Source of the DNA: Verrucomicrobiia bacterium
GTDB lineage: Bacteria > Verrucomicrobiota > Verrucomicrobiia > Limisphaerales > UBA1319
DNA length: 64,000 nt
Reading direction: 5' to 3'
NCBI GenBank assembly: GCA_963664225.1
Contig: OY760937.1
Coordinates: 3,648,001 to 3,712,000 of the forward strand
This document shows, piece by piece, positions 845 through 25,720 of the stretch; position 1 is the stretch's first letter; each line of letters starts with the position of its first letter. The notes under the pieces were generated by a model. It had not been told where the DNA came from, ran no database searches, and saw only the letters and a program-made list of their open reading frames with translations. A program made the translations under genes and the position numbers.

Positions 845-2819
845 GTGCGCCAGTGAAATTGGTAGCCTCGTGGGTGAAAGTCCCGCCGGTCGAATTAGAC
901 GGTTCACGACCGAAATGCAGCGTCCGGGACGAGGCCGTGAGGCCGAACCACAAGCGGGACGCTGAAAGAACTGTCGGGTCGTAACGAAAGTAAACCTCAT
1001 CAAATGAGCTCCGAAACCGAAATAACCGGTAAGCCGAGCCGCTACCCGAACGGCGAAGGCAGAAACGCGGCGTCATCAAATCGTCAAATGGGCGCTGTTG
1101 ATTCCGGCGGAGTCAGCGAGGGCGACACGACAGGAAGGGAAACCAAGGTAAGCTGGGAGATCTCTGGAGGCGGGGCGATAAAGCCTCAACCGCCGGTGCA
1201 AGGAGGAACACCCTCCGAGGCCGCACGGGCAGCCAGAGAAGTCGGAGTCTTCCATAGTAGCGAAGAAGCTGGGGCGACCAAAACCCCGGCGGAGCCAAGG
1301 GAAGGCACTTGGATCGAAGCGAATCAAAACAGCGAGGGACAGGGAGATGGCCTTGAGGGAGTGGAAACACTTTTTCAACGGATAACAACCCCGATAAAAG
1401 TTCAAAAGCTGCAGCGAGCGCTATATTGCAAAGCCAAGGCTGAGCCGAAGTATCGGTTTTACAGCCTCTACGGAGAACTGCTGCGGAAGGACGTGCTGGA
1501 AACGGCAATGGCCTCCGTGGCGCACAACAATGGCGCGGCTGGGATCGACGGGCAGACATGCGACGTCTATCTTGCCAGCGACGAAGCCTGGGACCAATGG
1601 CGGAACCAACTGCTGGAGGAGTTACGCACGAAGAAGTATCGGCCAAGCCCGGTGAAGCGTGTGTATATACCAAAAGGAGACGGGAAGCTGCGACCCCTGG
1701 GCATCCCGACAGTGAAAGACCGGGTGGTGCAGACAGCGGTGGTGATTGTATTGCTGCCGATTCTGGAAGCCGATAGTCATCCGAACAGTTACGCCTATCA
1801 TCCCAAACGCAATGCCCACCAAGCAATGGAGGCGATCAAGAAGGCTACGCTGACAGGACGCGTCGAAGTTATAGACGCGGACTTAAGCGGGTATTTTGAC
1901 AGCATTCCCCACAGGCGTTTGTTGCGCATAGTGGCCAAGCGGGTCAGCGATGGAACAATTCTCAAGCTGATCGCAGGATGGCTGCGCGCGCCCGTGAATG
2001 AACCGCAAAGCGACACAGGGAAAGGCGGGACAAAGGGGGGGCAAGGTCAGAATCGACGGGGGACTCCGCAAGGCGGGGTTGTATCGCCGATTTTAGCCAA
2101 TGCATACCTCAACCAGTTGGATTGGGAAGTCAACGAACGCTGCGAACTCAAACCCGTGATGGTGAGATACGCGGATGATTTCGTGATACTCGGACAGCCG
2201 GGGCAGGGACGGGAACTGATGGAACGACTGGAACGATGGCTGAAGCAACGCGAGTTAGTGCTCAACGAGAAGAAGACCCGCTTGGTGGACCTCCGCCAGG
2301 ATGGCATCAAATTCTTGGGATTCGCGCTAACAATGCGACAGGGGAAGGGGAAATGGAAATATCCGCATGTGGAACCCCATCCCAAGAGCCAGAAGAAGTT
2401 TCGAGACGGGATTCGGGAGAAACTCAACCGAAGCACGCTATGGCGTGATATCGGAGAGGTGATTCCCGAGCTCAACAAGAAACTCAAAGGTTGGAAGGGT
2501 TACTTTCACTACGGGAACAGCACCAAGGTGATGGGCCAGATGAACGAATACGTCAGCAGCAAGTTACAACGATGGTTGTGGCGCAAACACGGATGTAGTC
2601 GGGCGCAATGGTCCACATACCCCAAGGAGGATCTCTATGAGCGTTATGGTTTATACCAAATGCCGGAATATGCGGCATGGAAACGATGACGTCGAAGCGA
2701 TGCAACGTATGATCCCCGGAGAGCCGGATGCGGGAAAACCGCCTGTCCGGTTCGATGAGGGGCGAAATGCGACGGTCATTGGCCACGGCCATTCAATCCG
2801 TCCATTTCGCCTACTCTAC
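845..2819 (+). mobile_element. Group II intron (RT/maturase-encoding, no endonuclease domain)
   Basis: 5' GTGCG at 845 (alternative GTGTG at 843). Domain V GAGCCGGATGCGGGAAAACCGCCTGTCCGGTTC at 2721-2753 with AGC triad. Domain VI GGCGAAATG...CATTTCGCC-TACTCTAC ends in AC at 2819. Internal RT ORF. Confidence 0.92.
1361..2689 (+). CDS. ltrA: Group II intron reverse transcriptase/maturase
   Basis: KVQKLQRALYCKAKAEP (RT0), RPLGIPTVKDRVVQ, DADLSGYFDSI, GTPQGGVVSPILAN, RYADDFV, FLGF, and domain X (LKGWKGYFHYGN). No C-terminal HNH. Start uncertain: GTG 1361 chosen; the track start at 1004 lies in intron RNA domain I. Confidence 0.93.
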   Translation: METLFQRITTPIKVQKLQRALYCKAKAEPKYRFYSLYGELLRKDVLETAMASVAHNNGAAGIDGQTCDVYLASDEAWDQWRNQLLEELRTKKYRPSPVKRVYIPKGDGKLRPLGIPTVKDRVVQTAVVIVLLPILEADSHPNSYAYHPKRNAHQAMEAIKKATLTGRVEVIDADLSGYFDSIPHRRLLRIVAKRVSDGTILKLIAGWLRAPVNEPQSDTGKGGTKGGQGQNRRGTPQGGVVSPILANAYLNQLDWEVNERCELKPVMVRYADDFVILGQPGQGRELMERLERWLKQRELVLNEKKTRLVDLRQDGIKFLGFALTMRQGKGKWKYPHVEPHPKSQKKFRDGIREKLNRSTLWRDIGEVIPELNKKLKGWKGYFHYGNSTKVMGQMNEYVSSKLQRWLWRKHGCSRAQWSTYPKEDLYERYGLYQMPEYAAWKR

Positions 2820-4058
2820 TTAACCGTCAACAACAACCGATTCTCTGGATTCCTTGAAGATCCGTTTTTTATCATTCAATCACCTACCGGCCAACAGACG
2901 CAAATACGGCGGGAAAAAGTCGGCAAGGTCGTCTTTGCCAATCACAGCGCGGCGCCTGCCGGGATGCGACAAGGTCACTATATACGCCTTAAAAATGGCG
3001 ACTGGTGCAGCGGCGAGATGACATCGGAGTCTCTGACTTTAACAACTCCAGGCGGTAAGGAATCGTTCGATAGGATGACCATCAAATCGCTTGTATTCAC
3101 AGCGAGCACCCCTCCGCTCGCCATCGTCACGCCGCGCACGGGCGGAACCGTTCAAGGCAAATTGGACGTGGAAGACATATCGATACAGTTGGATGTGGGG
3201 CCGGTGATCGTCATTTACAGGGATAAGATTCAAAGCATTAGCGATGAGTTTTCCCCGGTTCCCACCAGCGCAGCCGCACTCACCGCTTCTCATGAAGCCG
3301 ATGCTCCAACGCAATCGGGCAGGATCGCATCCCAGCCAGGAACCACGAACATCGAAGGAATGGTTTGGATTCCAGCCGGCGAATTCAACATGGGCAGCCC
3401 CATCGACGAGGCGGGACGCGATGGAGACGAGGGACCAGTGACCCATGTGATCATTCCGCACGGTTTTTGGATGGGCAAATGCGAAGTGACCCAGGGCGAA
3501 TACCAGGCGGTCACGGGAAAGCGCCCGAGCAACGCCAGAGGCGAAACGAACGGACCGGTTGAAAAAGTAAGCTGGTACGACGCGATGCAGTATTGTGCCC
3601 AGCGAACACAGCAGGAGAATCTGGCGGCGAAACTGCCTGAAGGCTATGCCTATCGTCTGCCCACCGAGGCCGAATGGGAATATGCCTGCCGGGCGGGGAC
3701 ATCCACGCGCTATTGTTACGGTGACGACAAGGGCGAATTTCGACTGGGCGAATATGCCTGGTTTCTGCGCAATGGCGGTTCGATGACCCACCCCGTGGGA
3801 CTCCTTAAGCCCAATGCCTGGGGCCTCCATGACATGCACGGCAACGTTTGGGAGTGGTGCTTTGACCGCTGGCAGAGCATCCTGCCGGGCGGCAGCATCA
3901 CCAACCTCCCGGTTGCCGGCGAAGGTTCTCTGCGTGTGGCGCGCGGCGGTTCCTGGCTCTATGAAGGGAAGGCATGCCGGTCCGCCAACCGGGATGATTA
4001 CGGCCCATCAAACCGTTGCAGCGATGTCGGATTCCGAGTCGTTCTGGCCCCGCTTTGA
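2820..4058 (+). pseudogene. 3' exon of an interrupted gene: repeated small beta-domains plus C-terminal formylglycine-generating-enzyme (FGE-sulfatase) domain
   Basis: Frame resumes at TTA 2820 right after the intron. FGE motifs IPAGEFNMGS, EVTQGEY, RLPTEAEWEYACRAG, PNAWGLHDMHGNVWEWC, RGGSW, GFRVV. The 5' exon is separated by the IS and not in the window. Confidence 0.8.
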
Positions 4059-10409: not shown

Positions 10410-11800
10410 GGTATGTTCTAAGGTGATGGGTAACAGTTTCTCCCAAGCACATGGGTTACACTTTGCGAATGTCATGGAAGGAAACCAGTGTGAAGGACGA
10501 ACGAACAATAATGATCAGCGAGTATCTCAGCGGAGACTATTCGATAGCCGAGGTGGCGCGGCGTAGCGGGGTCGCTCGCAAGACCGTTTACAAATGGATT
10601 CGCCGTTATGAGGAAGGGGAGGATCAGGGACTCCAGGATCAGTCCCGGGCTGCGCACCATCATTCCAACGCTATTTCCGAGCAGATGGAGGAGTTGATTT
10701 TGGAATGGAAAGCCAGGCACCCTTTGTGGGGAGCCCCCAAGATTCAGAGCAAGCTCACCGGGTTGGCGGACTGTCCGGCTGAGAGCACGGTGAGCAATGT
10801 GCTGCGTCGGCACGGGTTAACGCGCCAGGTGCGTCGCAGGATCCGTTCCCATGGCAACGCGCAGCCGATGGCCGGCCTGCTTGGACCCAATGAGCTATGG
10901 TGTGTGGATTTTAAAGGATGGTTTCGCATGGGCAATGGAGAGCGCTGCGATCCGCTGACGATTAGCGACGCCTACAGCCGTTACCTGCTAGGCTGTCAGG
11001 GGATTGTTGGGGCGACCGGGCATTTGACAGTGAAACCTCTCTTTGAAGGCATTTTCCGCGAGTATGGGTTGCCCCTGGCGATTCGCAGCGACAATGGACC
11101 GCCGTTTGCCTCACCGGGGTTGGGCCGCCTGAGCCTGTTGTCGGTTTGGTGGATGCGGTTGGGAATCAGATTGGAACGCATTGATCCTGGGCATCCTGAA
11201 CAAAATGGCCGGCACGAGCGGATGCATCGCACTTTGAAAGAAGCGGCGATAACGCCTCCGAAGGCGAACAAAGCGGCTCAACAAAAGGCATTTAACGCGT
11301 TTCGGCAGGAATTCAATCAAGAGAGGCCGCACGAGGCGTTGAACCAACACACGCCGGCCAGCGTGTTTACGCCATCCGTGAGGAACTATCCCGATCGGTT
11401 GATGCAGCCGGAGTATCCTGAGAGATGGGAAAAACGAGGGGTGCGCACCAACGGAGAGATCAAGTGGCAAGGAGGCATGATCTATGTCAGCCAGGCGTTA
11501 ATTGGCCAGTGGGTCGGGCTGGAGCCGACCGGGGATGGATTATGGAAAGTGCATTTTATGAGTCAGGAACTGGGCCATGTGGACGAGAAGCGAAGGCGCG
11601 TGCACCTCTGGAACAAGAAAAAACGTGAGCCAAACAAGAATCAAATGTTCCCCGTCCCCTCGGTTCCACTGCGCCTTTGTCGCTACGCTCCAAAGGCTCC
11701 GTTCCACCGAGGGGACGGGGGCGAGTTGGGTCAAATGAAACCTCAAAAAGTGTAACCTATGCGCTTGGAAGAAAGTGTTACCTATGTGCTTGAACATACA
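10410..11800 (+). mobile_element. IS481-family insertion sequence
   Basis: About 50-bp imperfect IRs: left GGTATGTTCTAAGGTGATGGGTAACAGTTTCTCCCAAGCACATGGGTTACACTTT vs reverse complement of right TGTATGTTCAAGCACATAGGTAACACTTTCTTCCAAGCGCATAGGTTACACTTT. Right end is ...ACA. Confidence 0.85.
10469..11755 (+). CDS. IS481-family transposase (HTH + rve integrase core)
   Basis: MSWKETSV start, HTH (SRKTVYKW-like ARKTVYKWIRRY), WCVDFKG, IRSDNGPPF, HPEQNGRHERMHRTLK, NQERPHEAL. Confidence 0.92.
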   Translation: MSWKETSVKDERTIMISEYLSGDYSIAEVARRSGVARKTVYKWIRRYEEGEDQGLQDQSRAAHHHSNAISEQMEELILEWKARHPLWGAPKIQSKLTGLADCPAESTVSNVLRRHGLTRQVRRRIRSHGNAQPMAGLLGPNELWCVDFKGWFRMGNGERCDPLTISDAYSRYLLGCQGIVGATGHLTVKPLFEGIFREYGLPLAIRSDNGPPFASPGLGRLSLLSVWWMRLGIRLERIDPGHPEQNGRHERMHRTLKEAAITPPKANKAAQQKAFNAFRQEFNQERPHEALNQHTPASVFTPSVRNYPDRLMQPEYPERWEKRGVRTNGEIKWQGGMIYVSQALIGQWVGLEPTGDGLWKVHFMSQELGHVDEKRRRVHLWNKKKREPNKNQMFPVPSVPLRLCRYAPKAPFHRGDGGELGQMKPQKV

Positions 11801-21273: not shown

Positions 21274-21358
21274 GCCCGCGTGGCGGAATTGGCAGACGCG
21301 CTAGATTCAGGTTCTAGTGTTTAACGACGTACAGGTTCAAATCCTGTCGCGGGCACCA
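21274..21358 (+). tRNA. tRNA-Leu (CAG)
   Basis: GCCCGCG acceptor stem paired with CGCGGGC; D-arm TGGCGGAATTGGCAGAC; anticodon arm CTAGA-TTCAGGT-TCTAG; long variable arm; GGTTCAAATCC T-arm; encoded CCA. Confidence 0.97.
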
Positions 21359-21723: not shown

Positions 21724-23873
21724 CATTCCCCCTTTCGTTTCCGCCACACGCAATGGCCCGTAGCGTGACGACGGTTGAAACACCCATGGCGGAGCGCCGA
21801 CTTTTAGTCGGCTTAACGCCTCCGATAAACCAGTTTGCGGGTATCGCTGCTCATCGGTTAAAACCCATCCCGTCCTGACTTTTTGTCTTATTCACTACTT
21901 CGCGCGAACCTTAAATTCCATTTTATTAGCGTCTATTACCGAGGATTAGCGGTTTCCTCCCTTCCGGCTCACCCCAGTCTCCCTCGGTATGGAGTCTCGG
22001 CTTCAGCCTGCGTGGACCGCTATGAAATCGAGCGGCTTGTAGCATTCGCAGCCTTCCAGCCGTAGCGCAGACATCCTGTCTGCTGTATCGCAGATTTCCA
22101 ATCTGCAATCGTTGATCCTCCTCAATCGTGCTTAAATGAACAGGTCTGTACCTCTGCTTCAGCCAGTCAGATCATCATATTATCCGCCGCATCAACTTGT
22201 AGGCCGTGTCCCCCGACCCGGCGTCCCTCGGTATGGAGTCCCGGCTTCAGCCGGTTCGGTCACCGTATCGCAGAGGCATTTGAACTCGCGCAACCCTTCG
22301 AAATTCAAAATCCCTCCTGCATTCCCCCTTTCGTTTTCGCCACACGCAATGGCCCGTAGCGTGACGACGGTTGAAACACCCATGGCGGAGCGCCGACTTT
22401 TAGCCGGCTTAACGCCTCCGATAAACCAGTTGGCGGGTATCGCTGCTCATCGGTTAAAACCCATCCCGTCCTGACTTTTTGTTTTATTCACTACTTCGCG
22501 CGAACCTTAAATTCCATTTTATTAGCGTCTATTACCGAGGATTAGCGGTTTCCTCCCTTCAGGCTCACCCTGGCGTCCCTCGGTATGGAGTCCCGGCTTC
22601 AGCCTGCGTGGACCGCTATGAAATCGAGCGGCTTGTAGCATTCGCAGCCTTCCAGCCGTAGCGCAGACATCCTGTCTGCCGTATCGCAGATTTCCAATCT
22701 GCAATCGTTGATCCTCCTCAATCGTGCTTAAATGATCAGGTCTGCACCCTGCTTCAGCCAGTCAGATCATCATATTATCCGCCGCATCAACTTGTAGGTC
22801 GTGTCCCCCGACCCGGCGTCCCTCGGTATGGAGTCCCGGCTTCAGCCGGTTCGGTAATCGTATCGCAGAGGCATTTGAACTCGCGCAACCCTTCGAAATT
22901 CAAAATCCCTCCTGCATTCCCCCATTCGTTTTCGCCACACGCAATGGCCCGTAGCGTGACGACGGTTGAAACACCCATGGCGGAGCGCCGACTTTTAGTC
23001 GGCTTAACGCCTCCGATAAACCAGTTGGCGGCTATCACTGCTCATCGGTTAAAACCCATCCCGTCCTGACTTTTTGTCTTATTCACTACTTCGCGCGAAC
23101 CTTAAATTCCATTTTATTAGCGTCTATTACCGAGGATTAGCGGTTTCCTCCCTTCAGGCTCACCCTGGCGTCCCTCGGTATGGAGTCCCGGCTTCAGCCG
23201 GTTCGGCCATCGTATCGCAGAGGCATTTGAACTCGCGCAACCCTTCGAAATTCAAAATCCCTCCTGCATTCCCCCTTTCGTTTCCTCCACACGCAATGGC
23301 CCGTAGCGTGACGACGGTTGAAACACCCATGGCGGAGCGCCGACTTTTAGCCGGCTTAACGCCTCCGATAAACCAGTTGGCGGGTATCGCTGCTCATCGG
23401 TTAAAAACCCATCCCGTCCTGACTTTTTGTCTTATTCACTACTTCGCGCGAACCTTAAATTCCATTTTATTAGCGTCAATTACCGAGGATTAGCGGTTTC
23501 CACCCTTCCGGCTCACCCTGGCGTCCCTCGGTATGGAGTCCCGGCTTCAGCCTGCGTGGACCGCTATGAAATCGAGCGGCTTGTAGCATTCGCAGCCTTC
23601 CAGCCGTAGCGCAGACATCCTGTCTGCCGTATCGCAGATTTCCAATCTGCAATCGTTGATCCTCCTCAATCGCGCTTAAATGATCAGGTCTGCACCCTGC
23701 TTCAGCCAGTCAGATCATCATATTATCCGCCGCATCAACTTGTAGGCCGGGTCCCCCGATCCGGCGTCCCTCGGTATGGAGTCCCGGCTTCAGCCGGTTC
23801 GGTCACCGTATCGCAGAGGCATTTGAACCCGCGCAACCCTTCGAAACTCAAAATCCCTCCTACATTCCCCCTT
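21724..23873. repeat. Tandem array of about 596-bp non-coding units (3 full + 1 internally deleted)
   Basis: Unit starts ATTCCCC at 21725, 22321, 22916, 23268, 23864 (periods 596, 595, 352, 596). Units differ by only scattered substitutions and 1-bp indels. Confidence 0.95.
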
Positions 23874-23967
23874 GCCGCCCATCCTCCGGGCTATGCGGAA
23901 CGCACTGCAATCATTCAGCCCACGTTGCCGTGGAAATGCTACCCCGGGTCGCGCGTTACAGTTTTTT

Positions 23968-24008
23968 GCGGTCAGCTGCAGTCAATCGGAATTTAACCGG
24001 TTGACCGA
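23968..24008. repeat. Left copy of about 40-bp direct repeat flanking the hcp cassette
   Basis: GCGGTCAGCTGCAGTCAATCGGAATTTAACCGGTTGACCGA; similar to 25746-25785. Confidence 0.6.
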
Positions 24009-24151
24009 TATCGTGCCTGGATGTCGCCCATACAAACGCCCTGTCCCGATTCGTTTGACAAATCCGATCGATGACGCGTATTTCTTAAATACGCCGGACG
24101 GCCCACGGCAACGCTGGCCATAACGGTAATTTATTCCATAAAGGTGACGCT

Positions 24152-24802
24152 ATGAATCGAAAAAATCTCCTCTTTCTTTTGTTCGGGCTGGCAAGTCTCC
24201 TGGCCTCAATCCAGGCTTCCGCACAGGGAACCTTGACGCCACCTGGAGCCCCTGCGCCCACCATGCGATCGCTCGATCAGATTTATAACGAAGTCACCAA
24301 ACTTACACCGGCCAGCCCGCTGCTCCTGACGTCGCCTCTGAGTCCCACCCAGCAAGGCGTCATCCATATGGCCGCCAGGGGCCAAAAGCAGGGTGACATC
24401 AAAGGCGAATGCACCATTACAGGATTGGAAAACACCACCGTATGCATTGGCTTCACGCATGAAGTGGTCAGTCCACGGGATGCAACGACGGGCCTGCCCA
24501 CCGGCAAGCGCCAGCATAAACCACTGACCATCACCAAGTATATCGACAAAACCACACCCTTGTTCTACAGCGCGCTGGTGAACAACGAGATTCTGACCGC
24601 GGTTTCCTTCAACTTCTTCCAGACCGACTCGAAAAACCAAACCACCAATTATTACCGGATCAAACTCACCAACGCCAGCCTGGTCGATATTCGCAGCAGC
24701 GATCCCAGCCAGGAAACCTTCCAATTCACTTACCAAAAGATCGAATGGAATTACGTGCCTTCAGGAATATTCGCCACGGATGATTGGTCGGTTTCGCCCT
24801 GA
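24152..24802 (+). CDS. hcp: Hcp/TssD (T6SS tube) domain protein with N-terminal signal peptide and PPGAPAPTM motif
   Basis: Residues about 70-216: GQKQGDIKGE..HEVVSPRDATTGLPTGKRQHKPLTITKYIDKTTPLFYSALVNNE..YYRIKLTNASLVDI..ETFQFTYQKIEW..DDW, classic Hcp1 motifs. N-terminus MNRKNLLFLLFGLASLLASIQASA|QG. Confidence 0.9.
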   Translation: MNRKNLLFLLFGLASLLASIQASAQGTLTPPGAPAPTMRSLDQIYNEVTKLTPASPLLLTSPLSPTQQGVIHMAARGQKQGDIKGECTITGLENTTVCIGFTHEVVSPRDATTGLPTGKRQHKPLTITKYIDKTTPLFYSALVNNEILTAVSFNFFQTDSKNQTTNYYRIKLTNASLVDIRSSDPSQETFQFTYQKIEWNYVPSGIFATDDWSVSP

Positions 24803-24829: not shown

Positions 24830-25720
24830 ATGAAACGATCTATCGTTTGGCTGTTGGTTTCAATCTGCCTGACTTTCTCCACACGGGCCGCCACCACGGT
24901 CAGTCAGACCAACCACTTTGCCTATGCCTCCAACCTGGGCTGGGTGGACTGGCGCGGAGACATCAGCAATGGGGCCACCATTGGCGACTACCTTTGCTCC
25001 GGTTACCTCTATGCGGCCAACGTGGGTTGGATCAACCTGGGAAGGGGGATGCCGCGAAACGGGATCCGCTACGGCAATCTCGCCGCGGCTGATTTCGGGG
25101 TGAATCACGACGGGGCGGGCAACCTCCAGGGCTATGCCTGGGGCGCGAACATCGGCTGGCTGACTTTTACCAACCGCGACGCCACCGGGAAGATTTACGA
25201 CGGGCCGCGCGTCAATCTCATCACCGGCCAGCTCAGTGGCTGGGTATGGGGCGCCAACGTGGGCTGGATCAGCCTTGGCAACGCCGTCGCGTTCGTCCAG
25301 GTGAATCGCCTGCAATCCGGAACCGACGCGGATCGCGATGGCATTTCCGACGCCTGGGAATTGGATCACTTCGGCAACCTGACCACCGCAAATGCCACGA
25401 GCGATCAGGACGGTGACGGCCTTGGCGATCTACAGGAGTATCTCGCTGGCACTGATCCGAAACAGGCTGCCAGCAACTTGAAGGGCGCGCTCGCACCATC
25501 TCCGGCCGGTCCCGTCCTTGTTTTTACCTGGTTGAGTCAGCCGGGCTGCCAATATCGAATTCTGCAAACCGACAGCCTGACGCCTCCAGTTTCCTGGTCG
25601 GACATGGGATTGGGCTGGATAAATCCCGATCCCGGAGGACCCGCCATCCATCAGATCGACATGAACGGAGCGGCCAGCGCTTTTTATCGCCTCGAAGCCA
25701 TCAAACCGCTTGGACCATGA
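24830..25720 (+). CDS. Secreted protein with four (Y/W)xxxxNxGW repeats, DxDxDG Ca-binding-like repeats and C-terminal 'FYR' module
   Basis: Signal peptide MKRSIVWLLVSICLTFSTRA; AYASNLGWVDW, LYAANVGWINL, AWGANIGWLTF, VWGANVGWISL; DADRDGISDAWE, DQDGDGLGDLQEYLAGTDP; ends AFYRLEAIKPLGP. Confidence 0.8.
   Translation: MKRSIVWLLVSICLTFSTRAATTVSQTNHFAYASNLGWVDWRGDISNGATIGDYLCSGYLYAANVGWINLGRGMPRNGIRYGNLAAADFGVNHDGAGNLQGYAWGANIGWLTFTNRDATGKIYDGPRVNLITGQLSGWVWGANVGWISLGNAVAFVQVNRLQSGTDADRDGISDAWELDHFGNLTTANATSDQDGDGLGDLQEYLAGTDPKQAASNLKGALAPSPAGPVLVFTWLSQPGCQYRILQTDSLTPPVSWSDMGLGWINPDPGGPAIHQIDMNGAASAFYRLEAIKPLGP

Follow-up and report, generated by a model that had tools for sequence, protein, structure and literature searches.

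A predicted Sec-exported Hcp with a portable N-terminal tag and a conserved partner gene in a Verrucomicrobiia bacterium lacking core type VI secretion system genes

In the genome of a Verrucomicrobiia bacterium (GenBank assembly GCA_963664225.1, contig OY760937.1), an intact gene encodes a true member of the Hcp/TssD family that is not a component of a type VI secretion system (T6SS) and that belongs to an undescribed module made of a short N-terminal tag and a partner protein. The gene, hereafter the Hcp open reading frame (ORF), lies at 24152..24802 of the 64,000-nucleotide stretch analysed here (positions 3,648,001 to 3,712,000 of the contig; the window). Canonical Hcp has no signal peptide; it is assembled in the cytoplasm, and its tube is fired by the sheath. 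We consider it probable that the Hcp ORF instead specifies a T6SS-independent, Sec-exported Hcp, which is the cargo of a display or sorting module formed by the tag and its partner, the latter acting as receptor. This reading starts from the gene itself, its Hcp domain and fold, the missing T6SS core genes, the N-terminal extension kept among homologues, a tag found on varied passengers, and a partner gene linked to that tag.

Results

The Hcp ORF and its parts

The Hcp ORF is on the forward strand, starts with ATG and encodes 216 residues. A Shine-Dalgarno-like AAGGTG, read from the sequence, is found at 24141..24146 on the same strand, 5 nt upstream of the ATG, whereas the internal ATGs are worse served: for Met38 (24263) there is only a GGAG, 14 nt upstream, and for Met73 (24368) no Shine-Dalgarno-like site at all. 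Scans for promoters and terminators found none. The protein begins with a Sec-type signal peptide, residues 1-24 (MNRKN / LLFLLFGLASLLA / SIQASA; 24152..24223), which is predicted to be cut by signal peptidase I after A24. It is followed by the N-terminal tag, residues 25-48 (QGTLTPPGAPAPTMRSLDQIYNEV; 24224..24295), which forms the predicted mature N-terminus; a linker rich in Pro, Ser and Thr, residues 49-70 (24296..24361); and the Hcp/TssD domain, residues 71-216, which with the stop codon occupies 24362..24802 and is recognised by TIGR03344, PF05638 and Foldseek. Leader, tag and linker together add 70 residues to the Hcp domain.

The assignment to the Hcp family is firm. Pfam T6SS_HCP (PF05638) matches residues 81-201 with an E value of 2.2e-30 and 106 bits against a cut-off of 23.5, and NCBIfam TIGR03344 (TssD) matches residues 71-213 with 117.5 bits against a cut-off of 58.9, so both curated thresholds are exceeded. 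An AlphaFold2 (AF2) model built on 17 homologues has a mean pLDDT of 78.8; the ten-residue blocks from 71 to 210 reach 82-96, and the N-terminal extension stays at 44-66. In this extension, the model places a helix at residues 3-18 and a short helix of low pLDDT at 41-49, and the linker (pLDDT 52-66) is without regular structure. A Foldseek search of the model against the PDB returned 89 matches at E <= 0.001, the top ones all being Hcps; the best include 6a2v_B (E 2.2e-16), 4hkh_A (TM-score 0.89, root mean square deviation (rmsd) 1.7), 3he1_B (34% identity in the aligned part) and 5mxn (32% identity). The ORF thus has the Hcp beta-barrel fold. Hcp homologues show little or no variation in the SPRDxxxGLPTGKRQHKP hairpin, and the columns P108, D110, G114-G118, R120 and H122 are invariant in 22 aligned Hcp sequences.

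The leader shows the layout of a signal peptide processed by signal peptidase I: by inspection, it has an n-region with R3 and K4, a 13-residue h-region from L6 to A18, and a c-region with small residues at -3 and -1 (A22-S23-A24|Q25, of the A-x-A type). Among Hcp homologues, the hydrophobicity of the leader is kept and its sequence is not. The A-x-A|QG site is kept in the Verrucomicrobiota relatives of the Hcp ORF and recurs in tag-bearing ORFs of other genomes. The Pro-rich QGTLTPPGAPAPTMRSLDQIY segment behind the leader is conserved in the alignments; the linker that follows has a constant length and a variable sequence. A sequence-only reading of this DNA had already proposed a complete Hcp1/TssD domain behind a classical signal peptide and a Pro-rich segment, and the family scores, the fold, the n-h-c layout and the alignments agree with it on all these points.

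The N-terminal extension is conserved among homologues

A search of 5.8 billion proteins gave 1354 matches at E <= 0.001 among 1778 candidates, and we sorted the best 120 homologue clusters by regular-expression and hydropathy classes of our own making. Forty-nine of the 120 are canonical Hcps of about 162 residues without an extension, the best of which share 44-51% identity with the Hcp ORF over the domain. Forty carry the tag, including five gene calls shortened at or just past the tag Met; 30 have another hydrophobic N-terminal extension, which is either a plain signal peptide or a leader with collagen-like repeats (e.g., P0060 and P0095); and one is unclear. In P0060 and P0095, the collagen repeats precede the Hcp domain, with Pfam Collagen below its cut-off. 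A pair of cysteines, Cys87 and Cys98, occurs in 14 of the 40 tagged Hcps, in none of the 49 canonical ones and in none of the 30 with other hydrophobic leaders; such a pair would suit an oxidising compartment, where it may form a disulfide.

Twelve loci in public genomes contain an Hcp that matches from residue 26 or earlier: two Verrucomicrobiota metagenome-assembled genomes (MAGs), three Anaerohalosphaeraceae (one of them an isolate), three Phycisphaerae or Phycisphaerales, three MAGs labelled Pirellulales, and one Kiritimatiellales MAG. The extension thus appears to be translated and is retained by homologues, as the sequence-only reading expected, both in these 12 loci and in the 40 tagged clusters. 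In a tree of the homologues, the tagged Hcps fall into a few clusters and the label needs five changes; the tree was made by a quick method with the root placed on divergent paralogues, and gives no direction of evolution.

The genome holds Hcp genes without T6SS core genes

The genome is a single contig of 5,783,426 bases and is 96.35% complete. The window contains no T6SS gene. Across the genome, there is no match to TssC (PF05943), TssB (PF05591), TssF (PF05947), Phage_GPD/VgrG (PF05954), GPW_gp25 (PF04965) or Phage_sheath_1 (PF04984), a set that covers sheath, baseplate and spike genes; TssK, TssM and TssA were not searched. In five other genomes with a tagged Hcp, whose completeness is not stated, Hcp was found in all five and TssC in none. 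The absence of T6SS genes from the 64 kb had been noted before, and the T6SS independence deduced from it holds at the level of the genome. The Hcp ORF also departs from a T6SS component in its own build, since its 70-residue N-terminal extension with a hydrophobic leader is kept in homologues.

Among 301 genomes sampled evenly from the phylum, Hcp is found in 21 and TssC in 15; 13 genomes have both, two have TssC only, and eight, including the present one, have Hcp without TssC. Genuine T6SSs therefore exist in the phylum, and the present genome, with Hcp only, is not a host. The description of the Hcp ORF as an "orphan" was overstated, because Hcp matches number three in this genome. Two further genes stand side by side about 1 Mb from the Hcp ORF (contig positions 2671000-2689000, our locus L130), both with a plain hydrophobic leader directly before the Hcp domain: a paralogue of 185 residues (L130:7961-8518) and one of 283 residues (L130:8547-9398) with a C-terminal extension of about 95 residues.

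The tag is a portable N-terminal module

The tag has the consensus G-x-L-x-P-x3-P-x2-T-M-[KR]-[ST]-L-x-[EQD]-[IVL] and follows a hydrophobic stretch of variable sequence; in our alignment A3, the G, L, P, P, T, M and L columns are invariant. A profile of A3, built from 11 tags, scores 58.3 bits on the Hcp ORF, directly behind the signal peptide, and only 12.8 bits at the next-best place in the genome; the tag is thus unique in this genome. In the 301 genomes, the profile has 49 matches, distributed over 23 genomes and 19 of 149 genera, with up to 11 in one genome. The tag-bearing open frames are mostly 345-907 residues long. Where these ORFs are readable, the tag stands directly behind a hydrophobic stretch that mostly ends in A-x-A|QG; hence, the tag is the predicted mature N-terminus. 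No model in Pfam or NCBIfam covers the tag or the GW domain of the partner protein described below.

The passengers behind the tag are diverse. Pfam assigns 23 tag-bearing ORFs to Beta_helix/NosD (14), Lcl_C (3) and FGE-sulfatase (2), and finds no family in four, one of which has a parallel beta-helix repeat according to NCBIfam. Of the 49 tag matches, a single one falls together with an Hcp match, namely that of the Hcp ORF itself, so Hcp is a rare passenger. A homologue search with the tag region alone, which is less sensitive than the profile searches of genomes, gave one match (P0121, E 1.2e-3), a protein of 385 residues with the same leader and tag followed by beta-helix-like sequence. 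Different passengers also occur side by side: locus L006 has a tagged beta-helix protein besides its tagged Hcp, and at locus L013 a tagged Hcp of the window type is clustered with a second type of tagged Hcp and with a beta-helix protein that also bears the tag. The beta-helix passengers share a C-terminal tail of the DPWANF type, which the Hcps do not have. The tag is therefore a portable N-terminal module of Verrucomicrobiota, Planctomycetota and Kiritimatiellales, and its passengers are beta-helix, FGE-sulfatase-like and Lcl_C proteins and, in rare cases, Hcp. The sequence-only reading had also stated that further secreted proteins begin with the PPGAPAPTM segment, and this proved correct; the further idea of a modular tag with a swappable passenger stands across genomes, where several passenger types are found, and fails for the present genome, whose single tag serves no second passenger.

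Two side observations concern the FGE-sulfatase domain. A 473-residue protein with this passenger-type domain is encoded in the window at 2637-4058; here it is untagged, since the profile found one tag in the genome. The tag-bearing FGE-sulfatase-like proteins of loci L103 and L111 have sub-threshold NCBIfam matches (127 bits vs. 350) to GldK/PorK and GldJ, lipoproteins of the type IX secretion system and gliding, which we take most likely to reflect the common FGE-sulfatase-type domain.

The partner gene tracks the tag

The most informative feature of the locus, on which the sequence-only reading was silent, is the gene directly downstream. It lies at 24830..25720 on the same strand, 27 nt past the Hcp stop codon, and encodes 296 residues: a signal peptide (1-20), four GW hairpins (21-165), two TSP3-like Ca-binding repeats (166-215) and an FN3-like domain (217-296). 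The GW hairpin repeats the pattern [YW]-x-x-N-x-G-W-[IVL]-x-[LF] in four copies. TSP3_bac scores 23.5 bits on this protein, just below its cut-off of 25 bits, and 25.4 bits on the copy at locus L004. The AF2 model of the partner has a pLDDT of 91.6 and a pTM of 0.84, and its C-terminal part is a beta-sandwich; Foldseek found no match to it in the PDB at E <= 0.001. With VIA-align, residues 21-159 resemble small 8-stranded barrels, with hemophilin first (7re4_A, Z 7.4, rmsd 2.7 over 95 residues) and HpuA, HphA, OprF-N and NspA following at Z 6.1-6.7; residues 217-296 resemble FN3 domains (5g56_A, Z 7.2). Slam (PF04575), looked for because the hemophilin-like barrel suggested a T11SS, has no match in the genome, and the control genomes are silent too.

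The GW family has 461 representatives at E <= 1e-30; counts at looser thresholds are inflated by the TSP3 repeats. The ESM Atlas has no entry for the partner sequence itself, and its clusters of a partner homologue are all named "hypothetical protein". Among 27 long GW-family proteins scanned, there is no fusion to Hcp, and only TSP3, Laminin_G_3, NHL and DUF7453 were seen. The tag is on none of 150 GW-family representatives, which is expected if tag and receptor are separate chains. Searches with Pfam and NCBIfam detected no Dockerin_1, Cohesin, TPS or Omp85 domain, and neither the Hcp ORF nor the partner has a Dockerin_1 or Cohesin match. A complex prediction of the GW domain (residues 21-180, alignment A4) with tag and linker (residues 25-72, alignment A2) gave no answer, at 0.01 against a mark of 0.32, and carries no weight either way.

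A GW-domain profile (A5) was run on the same 301 genomes as the tag profile. The partner scores 201.9 bits to A5, and the genome has this one GW domain, beside its single tag. The tag occurs in 23 genomes and the GW domain in 25; both occur in 21, the tag only in two, the GW domain only in four, and neither in 274. Of 32 GW matches, 24 have a tag match on their contig at a distance of no more than 2.1 kb, on one side or the other, and such a close pair is present in 20 of the 21 genomes with both. In 29 loci cut at ±1.5 kb around tag matches, 14 contain a GW domain. The same neighbourhood is found around tagged Hcps: at L004, a homologue of the partner, with 51% identity, directly follows the tagged Hcp; at L006, the partner gene stands between the tagged beta-helix gene and the tagged Hcp; and at L013 and L014, it directly follows the tagged Hcp of the second type. 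In 68 other retained Hcp loci, nearly all of which match over the Hcp domain only, no GW gene was found. The GW gene is a conserved partner that follows the tag across passengers and phyla.

Genomic surroundings

Other genes of the window encode GH92, GH95 and GH2 glycoside hydrolases, a beta-lactamase-family protein, a nitrilase-family protein, a sigma-54 activator, a MacAB-type exporter and a polysaccharide-synthesis cluster, as well as a group II intron reverse transcriptase/maturase (1004-2689) and an IS481-type transposase (10451-11755). The two other Hcp paralogues are surrounded by GH39, melibiase/NPCBM, GH92 and GH9 genes, i.e., by genes for secreted glycoside hydrolases as near the Hcp ORF. 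GH92 genes are near both Hcp loci, which may be chance in a genome rich in glycoside hydrolases.

Between a tRNA-Leu (CAG) gene (21274-21358) and the Hcp ORF, a tandem array of a unit of about 595 bp occupies 21724-23996, just downstream of the tRNA gene. It has about four copies of 95-98% identity, one of them shortened, with spacings of 596, 595 and 352. A second array of this unit, in the opposite orientation, is located near 1.9604-1.9646 Mb of the genome, with short pieces of the unit scattered in other places. Rfam has no match to the unit, whose internal ORFs have the look of translated repeats. The upstream tRNA gene and repeats suggested horizontal transfer, an idea we rejected: the GC content of the Hcp-partner gene pair (0.53-0.60) does not depart from its surroundings, and nothing thus points to a recent island.

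A Terminase_6C gene lies 0.4-2 kb downstream of the tagged Hcp in two loci of Planctomycetota (L010:2843-4342 and L011:10547-12043). L011 has a BglII-type restriction enzyme and an MT-A70 methylase between the two, and both loci have a gene for a CARDB-domain protein upstream of the tagged Hcp. These terminase-like surroundings may be a mobile-element context.

Discussion

We propose that the product of the Hcp ORF would leave the cytoplasm by the Sec pathway and act without a T6SS. After cleavage, the mature protein would begin with the tag of about 24 residues and continue through a flexible linker, rich in Pro, into the Hcp domain. The partner, with its GW-hairpin barrel, Ca-binding TSP3-like repeats and FN3 domain, would recognise the tag and either keep the passenger in the envelope or on the cell surface or route it there. 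Given the export signal, the common tag, the partner gene and the lack of a T6SS, the envelope or the surface seems to be where the Hcp fold has found a new use. The fellow passengers, namely beta-helix proteins, FGE-sulfatase-like domains and the Lcl_C adhesin head, are presumably of surface or glycan-binding kinds, and on this classing a displayed or binding role of Hcp is likelier than a tube. A more specific version is tentative and, on balance, doubtful: the tag and the GW barrel may be a peptide-receptor pair not known so far, which mounts diverse secreted modules, such as beta-helix enzymes or adhesins, lectin-like domains and Hcp rings, on the envelope of Planctomycetes-Verrucomicrobia-Chlamydiae bacteria; the Hcp hexamer would here have left the T6SS entirely and be displayed as a ring scaffold or carrier outside the cell or in the periplasm.

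Several points weigh against the proposed display or sorting module. The linkage is incomplete: eight of the 32 GW matches and many tag matches, including most of the 11 in genome G067, have no counterpart nearby; in genome G106, tag and GW domain are on different contigs; and a GW gene is found in only four of the 12 tagged-Hcp loci within the flanks examined. As the loci without it include L008 and L011, which have ample flank, the partner is not obligatory beside Hcp. The sampled genomes are related, so the genome counts of tag and GW domain overstate independence. The Z values of the partner, of which 7.4 is the best, lie where unrelated models reach, and they name no function. Export of the Hcp is predicted from a leader judged by inspection, and the Planctomycetota homologues have a less classical site after the h-region (e.g., VTG|GD), which leaves room for an uncleaved anchor. 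The ring, filament or nanotube suggested by the sequence-only reading is hypothetical, as is a hexamer of this Hcp.

Three other explanations deserve attention. The tag might be a short oligomerising or stalk element, like the collagen-like or coiled-coil necks of fibre adhesins, with the GW protein being a surface protein of the same pathway, co-expressed and making no direct contact to it. It is rich in Pro and Gly, and the tag-bearing ORFs of L102, L110, L112 and L127 run straight into heptad-like helical stretches; moreover, the passenger Lcl_C is named after the Legionella collagen-like protein Lcl, in which it follows collagen repeats, and the exported Hcps P0060 and P0095 have collagen repeats of their own before the Hcp domain. 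However, the tag with its single PPGAP is too short for a collagen helix, it is always at the predicted mature N-terminus, and the partner gene tracks it irrespective of the passenger; we thus regard a stalk as unlikely, and the least unlikely of the three. Alternatively, the hydrophobic N-terminus might be an uncleaved signal anchor, which would tether the Hcp domain to the inner membrane, facing the periplasm. The Planctomycetota homologues, with long h-regions followed by V-x-G-G instead of A-x-A, point in this direction, as does the AF2 helix at residues 3-18; in the Hcp ORF and its Verrucomicrobiota relatives, however, A-x-A|QG is conserved, and an h-region of 13 residues is short for a stable membrane span, which makes an anchor improbable here.

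The remaining explanation, that translation starts at an internal Met to give an ordinary cytoplasmic Hcp of an unrecognised contractile machine, or that the gene is a decaying relic, appears very improbable. It can draw on the database gene calls P0008, P0015, P0020 and P0034, which begin at the tag Met, and on TssK, TssM and TssA having been outside the absence search. Yet the residues before the tag Met show conservation at the protein level in several phyla, the first ATG has the best ribosome-binding site in front of it, and a genome in one contig lacks six families of contractile systems; the invariant columns of the Hcp domain from P108 to H122 also speak against this explanation. Compared with these three explanations, the tag-plus-partner module is the reading we prefer.

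The Hcp ORF is like the Hcp/TssD proteins Hcp3 of Pseudomonas aeruginosa (3HE1), Hcp1 of enteroaggregative Escherichia coli (4HKH) and Hcp of Vibrio cholerae (5MXN) in sequence family, fold and the SPRD...GLPTGKRQHKP hairpin, and over the domain it shares about 47-50% identity with canonical Hcps of 162 residues. It differs from them in its leader, tag and linker, in a genome without sheath, baseplate and spike genes, and in the Cys pair present in part of its clade. The module is similar to cohesin-dockerin and other tag-receptor display systems, in which diverse secreted passengers carry one short module and a dedicated partner gene is adjacent; the TSP3-like repeats of the partner presumably resemble dockerin loops. 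Two-partner secretion, with an N-terminal TPS domain on beta-helix cargo and an adjacent transporter gene, follows the same logic. Unlike in both of these systems, the tag is a peptide of about 24 residues, not a domain, and its binding to the partner is proposed here from gene linkage. The likeness of the GW domain model to hemophilin (7RE4), the HpuA C-barrel (5EE2), OprF-N and NspA (Z 6.1-7.4, rmsd 2.7-3.4, 93-102 residues) comes with 5-16% identity and is one of fold only.

A full-text search of the literature, supplements excluded, found no paper on an Hcp with a signal peptide or on Hcp in bacteria lacking a T6SS, and none on a tag-plus-partner module. Judged by their abstracts, papers on "orphan Hcp" deal with hcp genes that T6SS-positive bacteria carry away from the main cluster, and passages of a 2012 survey of polymorphic toxins present Hcp1 only as a part of the T6SS or as fused to toxins.

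A lineage of conserved, Sec-exported Hcps without contractile machinery would mean that this fold has a second, unstudied role in the envelope or outside the cell, and it would bear on how parts of phage tails are recruited to other uses. The locus provides two experimental handles on such an Hcp, namely the tag, which is short and portable, and the one partner gene. Should the tag bind the GW domain, Verrucomicrobiota and Planctomycetota, phyla whose surface biology is poorly known, would offer a natural pair of peptide and receptor for displaying proteins.

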